Assembly (NCBI RefSeq): GCF_006345805.1
Contig: NC_043013.1
Location: 59,148,001 to 59,212,000 of the forward strand
Direction of reading: 5' to 3'
DNA length: 64,000 nucleotides
From: Octopus sinensis
Lineage: Eukaryota
How positions within the stretch are numbered: position 1 is the first letter of the stretch; every line of letters starts with the position of its first letter. Made by a program: the position numbers and the translations under genes. Below the pieces are notes generated by a model. That model saw only the letters and a list, made by a program, of their open reading frames with translations, made no database searches and was not told where the DNA came from. Positions 4,990 to 17,538 of the stretch are shown piece after piece.

Positions 4990-5420
4990 ACAAAATAAGA
5001 AAATGGAGGAATACATCGAAATCAAATATCGATTACCAGATAATACTCAATCACATACTTTATTAAACCACCACATAAGAAACTATAAGGTTAAACATAA
5101 TAATGCAGGGTAAAGCAGTGTACATGAAGGAGTGTACATAAAATAGTAATGTTATACAATAAGTAGAATACGTATAATTGAACATAAATATAAGTACACA
5201 TAAATATAAAAATTGTACTATATTTATGTTCAATTATACGTATTCTACTTATTGTATAACATTACTATTTTATGTACACTCCTTCATGTACACTGCTTAC
5301 TCTGCATTATTATGTTTAACCTTATAGTTTCTTATGTGGTGGTTTAATAAAGTATGTGATTGAGTATTATCTGGTAATTGATATTTGATTTCAACGTATT
5401 CCTCCATTTTCTTATTTTGT
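4990..5420. repeat. ~200-bp-arm inverted repeat of a PLE-like terminus
   Basis: Arms ~4990-5192 and ~5219-5420 are reverse complements. The left arm is homologous to 3460-3665. Confidence 0.9.
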
Positions 5421-6713: not shown

Positions 6714-7710
6714 AGTTTTTCCTTGGGGCTGGCCAGATTGGAGCAATCTCGAGTATAACCAGCCAAAATTGCAAAGATAATCTGGAACTTGACTGAGGAA
6801 AGAAAACTCCAAATGACCCATCCTTGTTTTCTTTGTATCGTCTGTCTGAATGTTTTATTGCCCCTTTTTTGTATCACCTACAGTCTGGATGCTTTGCGTT
6901 CTTGTCCCATTTGTATTTTTTATATATAAAAATATAGTGCCTTACGAACACTTTGGTCTCTTATATGTAAGTATATATATATATATCTAAATTTTGTACA
7001 ACTCTATTATTCTTTCTATTCTTTCATTCTTTCTTTCTATCAGTCTTTCACACTTGCTTTGTTCATTCCACTTTTCATTCTTTCTTTCCCTCTCTCACAT
7101 TTCCTGGCTTCTCTTCATGGCTCACTTTCGCTCCTCTTTCACTCCTCTCTGTCCTCTTTATTCTTTCTCACTCCTCCTTAATTCTTCTATCTCTCTGCTT
7201 CTACCTCTGTCCCAAGTGACCGGTGTTCGGCCAAGCCTGACCTTTCTTTCTTGGTTCGACTACCATCTGTGCAGCATCTATATTCCTCCCTGTGCCTGTC
7301 AAATCTTATGTCCCTGCTATAAGGCTTTACTTTCACACACACCAGCTTAATTTAATTCATCCTTAGTCGAAAGACACCTGTTGTTATGTCCTGTTATTTG
7401 CATTTGTATTTGTGTACCATTTCTCCTTTTTTTTCCATCCTTGTTTTCGTATACATTCGATGCTTTCTTCCTAGGAATCTAATACTCTTAGCTTAGTTTT
7501 TCCTTGGGGCTGGCCAGATTGAAGCAATCTTGAGTATAACCAGCTGAAATTGCGAAGATAATCTGGAACTCGTCTGAGGAAAGAAAACTCCAAATGACCC
7601 GTTCTTGTTTCCTTTGTATCATCTATCTGGTTGTTTTGCATTCTTTTCTCACTTTTGTATTTTTTATAGTTAAAAATATAGTGCCTTACATACACTTTGG
7701 TCTCTTATAT
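6714..7710 (+). repeat. Tandem direct repeats (~6714-6965 and ~7495-7710), probable PLE-type termini
   Basis: Two related ~220-250 bp units begin AGTTTTTCCTTGGGGCTGGCCAGATT and end ACACTTTGGTCTCTTATAT. Flanked by microsatellites. Confidence 0.75.
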
Positions 7711-8239
7711 AAATATTAGTGTAGTAAGAAGCTTGCTTCCCGGTCACATTGTCCTGGGTTGAGTTCCACTGTGTGGCACCTTGGGCAAGTGTCTTCTACT
7801 ATAGCCTCAGGCAGACCAAAGCCTTATTAGATGGTTTGGTAGATGGAAACAGAAAGATACCAGATGTATGTATATATGTATATATCTATATATGTGTGTG
7901 TGTGTCTTTGTATCTGTGATTGCCTCTCACCCCACTACTTGACAACCAATGCAGGTGTGTTTATGATAGAATAAGTACTGTATTTTGGTTATATATACAA
8001 GGTGAAGTCAGAAATTATCAACATATCTTTATTATTGTGACACTGCCTTCTGCACATGCATGCTTATAGTTGGTCATGTGATCGAAGTTTGAGCCTGATT
8101 GTGCCATTTTTCTTTCTGGCTTTACAGTTTAAATGTGGCCATTCCACTAGCAATGTGCACCAAAGAAGAACAAAAAGCAGTGATCCGATTTCTCTGGAAA
8201 AGGGGTGTACGATCGACAGTGGAAGATACAGTGCTTTGC

Positions 8240-9575
8240 TGGCTAACAAACTGAATGGAAGCAAGGTCTAGAATCAAAGGGCCTTAGAGTTAGTCTAGAA
8301 AAAACCAAAGCCTTAGTAAGTAGGAAGGCAGAAAAATCACAAATTCCTTCAAGTAGATGGCCCTGCACAATCTGTAGAAAAGGTGTAGGTAGAAACTCCA
8401 TAAGATGCACCCATAAAAGGTGAAGTAATATCAGAGGAAGGTTAACAGGGAAACTAACTTTTGTATGTGGAAGGTGCACAGGTACAATAAATGCCGAAAA
8501 TGTGTAGAAAATAGACTCTGTCAACTGCCAGTGGGGCAAGCTAGAGGTAGTAGATAGCTTCTGTTATCTAGGTGACCCAAGTTAGTAGTGAAAGTGGATG
8601 CTCCAAGAGCATAGCCGTGAGAATAAGATTAGGATGGGCAAAGTTCAGAGAGCTCCTACTCCTGCTGGCAACAAAGGGCTTCCCTCTCAGAGTGAAAGGC
8701 AGATTGTTTGATGCCTGTGTGTGAACTGCTATGCAGCATAGCAGTGAAACATGGACCTATAACTGCTGTGGGCATGTGTAGGCTTTACTGGATGTGCAAT
8801 GTCAGTGTGCATGTTCTATAGAGTGTAAGCATCTTGAGAGAAAAGTTAGGCATAAGAAGCATCAGATGTGGTGTGCAAGAGAGATGACTGTGCTGGTACG
8901 GTCATGTGATGTGTATGGATGAGAACAGCTGTGTAAAGAAGTGCTGATCTCTAACTTTGGAGGGAACCTGTGGTAGAGGTAGACCCAGGAAGACATGAGA
9001 CGAGGTAGTGACACATGATCTTTGAACTTTGAGCTTCACAGGTGCAATGAGTAGTGACTGAGACCTTTGGTGATGTGCTGTGCTTGAGAGGACCTGTCAA
9101 GCCAAGTGCACCCATGCTGGTGGCATGCAAAGAACATCTTTTGAATGTTGGGCCTTACAGAGGCAAAGTGGCTGAGTTTCTTTTGAGTGTTGGGCCTCAC
9201 AGAGGCAATGACTAAGACCTTTGGCATTATGTCACGCTTGAGAAGAAGACCCATCAAGATGAATAAAATTGCAGTTGTGTCAGATACTGGTGTCATGCAA
9301 ATTGGCACCCGTGTCAGTGGTGCATAAACACACCCTGGTATCATCCAAATGATACCCATGCTGGTGGCACATAAAAACACTCATTACGCTCTTGGAGTGG
9401 TTCACATTAGGAAGGGCATCCAGCCATAGAAAACCATCAAGCTGTAGAAAACCTAGAAAACCATTCAGCTGTAGAAAACCACGTCAGGCTGGAATCTGGT
9501 GTAGCCTTCCAGTGAGTCAGCCCAGTCAAACTGTACAACCCATGCCAAATGGACAGTGGATGTTAAATGATGATG
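8240..9575 (+). mobile_element. RTE-clade LINE 3' portion with (GAT)n tail
   Basis: LESKGLRVSLEKTK...WPCTICRKGVGRNSIRC...LLATKGFPLRVKGRLFDAC. The 3' end with (GAT)n recurs at ~5810-6090, 11020-11270(-), 16960-17150, 18510-18705(-) and 34785-35026. Confidence 0.8.
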
Positions 9576-17343: not shown

Positions 17344-17538
17344 AAACTAGTAATCATTATTTACATTATTTACATTATTTACATTTGACGGATATTTGTC
17401 CTCATCTTGTTTGTTGTTAACACAACATTTCGGCTGATATACCCTCCAGCCTTCATCAGGTGTTTTGGGGAAATGTCGACCCTGGGTTCTCATTCATAAG
17501 GGTTTTTTTGAAAGCTTAGTAAACTAGTAATCATTATT
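17344..17538 (-). mobile_element. Short retro-insertion with 18-bp TSD, carrying a hammerhead motif
   Basis: AAACTAGTAATCATTATT is duplicated at 17344-17361 and 17521-17538. The 159-bp insert ends in (TGTAAATAA)n on the minus strand. Confidence 0.85.
17419..17464 (-). ncRNA. Minimal type I hammerhead motif
   Basis: AACAC-CUGAUGA-A-GGCUG(10 nt)CAGCC-GAAA-UG-UU-GUGUU. Lies inside a TSD-flanked retro-insertion. Confidence 0.8.

Follow-up and report, generated by a model that had tools for sequence, protein, structure and literature searches.

The motif that occurs twice in the window (the whole 64,000-nt stretch of Octopus sinensis DNA analysed here), at 6714-6808 and 7495-7589, is very probably a self-cleaving hammerhead ribozyme whose parts follow one another non-circularly and whose catalytic core is interrupted between A9 and G10.1. 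A repeat that is itself non-autonomous, and that Naiad-type Penelope-like elements (PLEs) probably mobilise, carries it at the 3′ end. Every core nucleotide is present, as are stems I-III and a brace helix, and all of these are conserved or covary. The chain enters the motif at stem II and leaves it after CUGAnGA, and Naiad elements end in the same layout. The first-pass annotation of this DNA placed the two repeats correctly and suspected an unrecognised structured RNA or ribozyme. The motif is indeed a conserved double pseudoknot absent from Rfam and probably self-cleaving, but it does not lie outside the hammerheads. The statement that it does not fit the hammerhead layout must be withdrawn, because all core elements are present; only their order is non-circular, and the core is open at the A9/G10.1 step.

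Both copies belong to one insertion (6714-7712, + strand) of a non-autonomous Penelope-like repeat, subfamily F1, which comprises about 1.3 tandem units of 781 nt, is 5′-truncated and has TA-rich microsatellite on its flanks. The two motif repeats are spaced by 781 nt and show 90% identity over 143 nt; each is followed by a U-rich 3′ tail, which extends from 6809 to about 6990 behind copy 1 and over 7590-7712 (+ strand) behind copy 2, where its end is TA-rich. Relatives of the repeat have a fixed 3′ end, variable 5′ ends, inverted 5′ copies and partial tandems with units of about 776-830 nt, and their insertion targets are TA-rich microsatellites. As proposed earlier, the motif occupies a tandem terminal repeat of a retroelement. 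Head-to-head inverted copies with breakpoints at or near the predicted cut site (see below) are located at C1:88925339-88925394 and C1:14537481-14537564. Neither the window nor 90 family loci contain an element ORF. A coding role for the motif repeat was excluded, since ORF conservation is absent from the window and these 90 loci, and the element bearing it is non-autonomous, as it lacks an ORF for the N-terminal GIY-YIG endonuclease and reverse transcriptase.

Walking outward from divergent copies led to five subfamilies, F1-F5. In the 2.7-Gb O. sinensis genome, 6,929 anchored family copies were counted, the upstream stem II strand being missing in 1,187 of them. The proposed search for family copies and a parent element was thus successful in its first part, with thousands of copies, while no autonomous element bearing exactly this ribozyme sequence was found in the genome searches. 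The element body includes a short GUC-GAAA-GAC hairpin (7366-7375, + strand) with a GNRA loop that reads GUAA in F2 and F5. This GUC-GNRA-GAC hairpin, which precedes the ribozyme by about 120-200 nt, is retained in four subfamilies with a divergent surrounding body (window 7366-7375; loci L034, L220 and L256). Elsewhere in the window, a minimal Penelope-type hammerhead of canonical order lies at 17416-17465 (- strand), its stem II sequence being identical to that of the split-core motif, and similar minimal hammerheads are present in loci L034 and L037. A near-perfect long inverted repeat occupies 4990-5420 (arms of about 200 nt, 97-100% complementary, spacer of 26 nt), and a decayed coding-like stretch to the right of the element (8000-9000, + strand) looks by eye like a LINE remnant.

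The architecture is given below in the hammerhead position numbering. Copy 1 (6714-6808, + strand) opens with the 5′ strand of stem IV (6714-6720), which pairs with 6802-6808 and closes the gap between A9 and G10.1; it is 97.1% paired, with one-sided changes only and one mismatch in F4. The CCUUGG linker ahead of G10.1 (6721-6726) may form a mini-hairpin where the Naiads have a full hairpin (V), as its sequence and a by-eye comparison with Naiad tails suggest. The 5′ strand of stem II (helix a, 6727-6732) begins with G10.1 and pairs with 6759-6764, whose last base is C11.1 (97.0% paired). It is followed by the 5′ strand of brace helix b (6733-6739), which pairs with 6779-6785 and corresponds to the helix through which stems I and II interact in type-SGC and type-CSG hammerheads. 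The GGA strand of a kink-turn-like loop (6740-6742), which faces a 3-nt bulge at 6773-6775 and GAU at 6776-6778, leads into the 5′ strand of stem III with H17 (6743-6748; helix c comprises 6743-6747/6768-6772 and is 98.6% paired), and the cut is predicted 3′ of C6748 in the triplet AUC. The 5′ strand of stem I (helix d, 6749-6754) pairs with 6787-6792. The G12-A13-A14-A15.1 position (6765-6768) reads AAAA in copy 1 and GAAA in the family, and the core C3-A9 is CUGAGGA (6793-6799), N7 being G, A, U or C among copies. In copy 2 (7495-7589, + strand), the predicted cut is 3′ of C7529, CUGAGGA is located at 7574-7580 and GAAA at 7546-7549. The annotated helices a-d and their order a-b-c-d-a′-c′-b′-d′ were borne out by pairing, with a U-U mismatch in helix d of copy 2.

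The helices can be mapped onto the hammerhead because family copies show GAAA after a′. CUGAnGA lies directly behind the 3′ strand of stem I, UC stands before d, and G10.1-C11.1 is placed at the base of a. In the family majorities GAAA sits between stems II and III, the A15.1-U16.1 pair is present in 88/88 copies, and the UH cleavage site between stems III and I is AUC or AUA, the majority H17 being C or A and never G. What is missing is the covalent step from A9 to G10.1: since G10.1 lies 72 nt upstream of A9, the core is not contiguous. The strand preceding GAAA has no partner 3′ of CUGAnGA that is common to all subfamilies. A canonical type I-III hammerhead formed by CUGAGGA and the downstream GAAAA was also tried and rejected, as it has no stem II or stem I. 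Our verdict, on the arrangement of these parts, is that the motif should be regarded as a hammerhead variant and not as a new class, although it falls outside the contiguous-core criterion of all six named permutations.

A kink-turn consists of a 3-nt bulge followed by tandem G-A and A-G pairs between two helices. In the loop between helix b and stem III, four G/A positions are fixed and the 3-nt bulge is variable among the five subfamily majorities, and this loop appears kink-turn-like. The same sequence pattern is met in the O. sinensis Naiad family.

The core of both window copies is damaged. In copy 1, G12 is replaced by A at 6765; copy 2 has U in place of C11.1 at 7545, a U-U at the first pair of stem I and A in place of the kink-turn G at 7522. 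The two copies are predicted to be decayed and inactive. Neither matches the structural descriptor, copy 1 being missed by its strict and relaxed versions alike. Most differences between the window copies represent CpG decay, as had been suspected, and the covariation comes from other subfamilies. The hammerhead was overlooked partly because copy 1 had lost G12 and because the closing helix proposed earlier buries CUGAGGA.

To the genome-wide search, the core pattern in permuted order gave 5,211 matches in O. sinensis and 0 in the reversed control, and the full descriptor matched once in 100 simulated 64-kb windows scanned on both strands. Among the metagenome matches listed, 0 of 121 loci passed the structural descriptor. 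The covariation set consisted of 88 F1-F3 copies, one of 89 being excluded for a large 5′ deletion. In these copies 96.3% of the five-helix structure (a-d and the outer closing helix) is paired, against 19-48% in slid controls; two-sided cells, which tally sequences and not events, number 137. Two-sided changes affect 3/6 pairs of stem I in the 88 copies, and a fourth in F5 brings this to 4/6 across subfamily majorities. Helix b is 93.2% paired, with two pairs changed on both sides in the 88 copies (3/7 per subfamily majority), though one pair is broken in 26/88 and F3 and F4 have a mismatch. Stem III of F5 has a paired one-base insertion in both strands, and the 5′ strands of F5 stems I and III were predicted from their partners ahead of retrieval and then confirmed. 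The covariation that the first-pass annotation had called for is thus found in stems I, III and b across subfamilies. Stem II hardly varies and has no two-sided change at the subfamily level within F1-F5; in the O. sinensis Naiad family its sequence is wholly different and still paired, so the covariation of stem II comes solely from the comparison with Naiad families. For stem IV, the weak points are that its changes, opposite a U run, are one-sided and that two registers are possible.

The core is fixed at 13/13 positions as compared to 37/60 of the others in the five subfamily majorities (p 0.004), the core positions having been assigned after F1 and one F2 copy had been viewed. The positions that are allowed to vary do vary: N7 is represented by all four bases and H17 by C or A. 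Copies with an intact core and intact stems make up 7/38 in F1 (a sample biased toward the damaged window copy), 16/30 in F2, 14/28 in F3, 14/14 in F4 and 15/22 in F5.

The Naiads were concluded to lack canonical hammerheads, and the portions of Craig et al. 2021 (PMC8557442) covered here present no ribozyme structure for them, although eight Naiads, one from Octopus, bear the label HHR_half_core. These portions also describe 5′ truncation, partial tandems, inverted 5′ copies and (TA)n targets as traits of Penelope-like elements and Naiads. The window family shares with the Naiads the 5′ truncation, the partial tandem and inverted 5′ copies, the (TA)n targets and the layout of the 3′-UTR ribozyme, whereas the window element lacks an ORF and does not resemble the tail of the Octopus Naiad in sequence. 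In the supplement of the same paper, the split layout was recognised by eye in at least 11/54 Naiad consensi (10 clean, 1 imperfect), a lower bound given that 58/62 places were viewed for CTGATGA and 10/43, 10/23 and 10/25 for other cores, and that line breaks conceal some. These 11 consensi come from one ctenophore, three Acropora, two Octopus and five that are placed only by file order, the imperfect one being among these five. In the consensi viewed, stem sequences are unrelated and pairing is perfect, A9 usually being followed at once by stem IV and G10.1 immediately preceded by a hairpin. Six nematode Naiad records of the supplement have an unbroken CSG order that appears intact by eye. 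In the parts viewed, one record ahead of Naiad-1_Pfla has CUGAUGA and stem I with no fit for GAAA or UH, and several arthropod Naiad tails (supplement parts 16-19) carry a different motif around CCCCUGA, possibly twister-like.

Near-identical copies of the published Octopus Naiad tail are present in the O. sinensis genome, where its motif has 379 matches, with the same layout as in the window family and unrelated stems. This motif is located 0.8-1.4 kb behind 9/15 Naiad ORF ends. Comparison of the F4 unit with 20 Naiad 3′ regions showed no sequence similarity, and a genome search with the Naiad upstream stretch matched an unrelated repeat. Since neither an autonomous carrier nor sequence similarity to Naiad tails was found, we infer the Naiad partner from the architecture and the target site.

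The + strand of the two window copies folds better than shuffles (z -2.0 and -3.1, as compared to -1.4 and -0.5 for the - strand), in accordance with its earlier designation as the structured strand. Nested folding, with pseudoknots beyond its scoring, pairs the CUGAnGA core with upstream sequence in 8/8 copies (mean 0.57-0.99), and the model thereby offers a competing fold that would bury the core and count against the split-core reading. Such folds would suit an RNA of hammerhead shape that has lost its cutting activity, or that needs a protein or dimerisation in order to cut, its fold being recognised by the PLE reverse transcriptase as a signal for binding or packaging. Most genomic copies do retain the uncut ribozyme, and Penelope-type minimal hammerheads are described, in the part of PMC4209133 covered, as having low activity in vitro and functioning as dimers. 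We nevertheless consider this explanation unlikely, because not only the helices but also the catalytic positions stay fixed in different subfamilies and phyla, with N7 and H17 varying, because 5′ ends step up at the predicted bond, and because the length of stem III is sufficient for a monomer.

Another possibility is that the motif has no relation to hammerheads and represents a new class of ribozyme or structured RNA, in whose fold the closing helix CCUUGG/CUGAGG takes part. This helix is present in the minimum-energy fold of both window copies, and an Rfam match at the motif is absent, as anticipated, for the window (E<=1), an F1 copy (E<=10) and an intact young copy (E<=10); elsewhere Rfam returned only microsatellite-driven miRNA matches below gathering. 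Comparison with the twister, HDV-like and pistol layouts, already considered unsuitable in the first-pass annotation, revealed a different strand order and no match to an Rfam covariance model. However, the closing helix is not conserved. Its outer part stands, being included in the 96.3%-paired structure, while its inner part, UUUCCUUGG/CUGAGGAAA, is 83.3% paired, which equals the shuffles: two of its nine pairs are broken in 60 and 30 of the 88 rows, and the N7 pair in 32. In addition, each hammerhead core element is in its exact place beside the right stem, and the nematode Naiad records viewed show the same architecture with block C unbroken. A new class is therefore very improbable.

An indirect indication of cleavage is provided by the 5′ ends of family copies. 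The predicted cut is between motif positions 35 and 36, and cut RNA would give rise to copies starting at or just after 36. From the 1,187 copies without the stem II strand we took the first 100 by genome order and dropped 5 with internal deletions; the 5′ ends of the remaining 95 are distributed as 10 at 17-31, 12 at 32-35, 22 at 36-40 and 51 at 41-47, chance matching extending an end by 1-3 nt in about half of cases. The scaled density of ends rises from 8 per nt upstream to 52-87 per nt after the cut, and a downstream control window with another anchor has <=10 ends per nt genome-wide. The largest peak, at 41-45, coincides with TA microhomology. Copies starting at the cut are short and run from it to the tail. 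In the O. sinensis Naiad family, where 30/44 copies were examined and 8 dropped as internal indels, 14/22 truncated copies begin at or after the cut (p 0.012), which is a weak bias. The pile-up resembles the footprint expected if the RNA was cut after H17. It is hardly credible that the ends only mark places where the reverse transcriptase stalled or where microhomology joined copies to (TA)n, with some other reason for the conservation of the helices: 51/95 ends do fall in the TA-rich linker, and ends of the Naiad family gather additionally at an AT spot that lies upstream of the cut, but the excess persists without the linker (34 ends past the cut vs 10 upstream, p 9e-8), stalls are expected at the 3′ side of the fold, where ends are rare, and this explanation bears on one line of evidence only.

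Three RNA runs of a related organism, all unstranded, cover an F1 copy with no pile of ends at the cut, the reads coming from many decayed copies, and a circle-closing joint was found in them 0 times. Reads of the F4 unit number 0, 0 and 1 in these runs. F4 (loci L220-L225) is a young subfamily with 776-nt tandem units of 95-100% identity, and its absence from the RNA of the related organism points to a probably recent lineage-specific burst. One run, guessed to be RNA, has contigs whose depth changes stepwise near the cut; this was not counted as evidence, and none of the motif carriers among the matches listed is registered as RNA.

Returning to the split-core hammerhead, one can suggest how it would operate. 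Stem IV and the small hairpin would hold A9 next to G10.1 in a four-way junction, while the kink-turn would bend the extension of stem III back, so that helix b could brace the tips of stems I and II. A cut after AUC or AUA would trim read-through or tandem transcripts, and the downstream RNA would begin at stem I with a defined 5′ end. The Naiad reverse transcriptase/endonuclease may then insert copies of such RNAs at (TA)n sites, starting from the U-rich tail. Cutting is presumably incomplete or delayed, because most copies keep the uncut ribozyme before the tail.

In a broader form, which we hold to be reasonably probable though less so than the hammerhead identity itself, this would be a seventh natural hammerhead wiring: an active one, in which the chain passes through the A9-G10.1 step and any sequence, up to a whole retroelement, may hang from the core. 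It would represent the ribozyme that Naiads have seemed to lack, in hosts ranging from ctenophores to molluscs and crustaceans; it would interconvert with the nematode CSG form and set RNA 5′ ends in vivo. If this is true, the stated rule that hammerhead block C is uninterruptible is broken, non-circularly permuted hammerheads are for the first time at hand from animal chromosomes, and the conclusion that Naiads thrive without hammerheads is overturned, self-cleavage becoming again near-universal in the Penelope-like life cycle. Ribozyme counts in invertebrate genomes would be too low, since standard descriptors and Rfam miss the split-core form. With thousands of copies, some of them young and intact, and with 5′ ends at the predicted bond, the role of PLE hammerheads becomes directly testable.

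The literature covered, apart from subscription papers and with the supplementary alignments of Eckert et al. searched by keyword only, contains no description of the split-core form or of a Naiad hammerhead that we could find, and the passages seen of the 2026 retrozyme preprint (bioRxiv 10.64898/2026.07.22.740005) and of a 2026 NAR paper do not mention the split-core form. In the parts consulted of Eckert et al. 2023 (PMC10085705), block C of the hammerhead is assumed to be uninterruptible, and insertions next to CUGAnGA in known alignments do not exceed 1-2 nt, a limit against which the predicted activity with a broken A9-G10.1 link has to be weighed; according to the section of PMC4209133 seen, the A9-G10.1 step tolerates an extra base. 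Type-SGC was obtained from metatranscriptomes only and type-CSG from metagenomes only, as two sequences, and the distance from the brace helix to the tips of stems I and II was flagged as a puzzle (PMC10085705, parts consulted). As far as these parts describe them, both types share with the window motif the cyclic S-G-C order, the helix bracing stems I and II, the double pseudoknot and the full core, the linker between stems I and II being 4 nt in the window motif and typically 3 nt in SGC and CSG. In contrast to them, the window motif has a split block C, with the 5′ strand of stem II at its 5′ end and CUGAnGA at its 3′ end, and resides in an animal genome in thousands of copies. Peculiar to it are stem IV and the hairpin at A9/G10.1, and the kink-turn-like loop that leads from stem III to the brace. 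Since it departs from the criterion of three uninterrupted blocks, we do not class it as SGC, CSG or GCS. With the non-LTR retrozymes and the minimal type I hammerheads of PLEs (PMC4209133; bioRxiv 10.64898/2026.07.22.740005; passages covered) it has in common a non-autonomous tandem repeat, one hammerhead per unit and ties to PLEs. These hammerheads, as described there, are of type I in canonical order with a tiny stem III, whereas the window motif is pseudoknotted and has a stem III of 5-6 bp.
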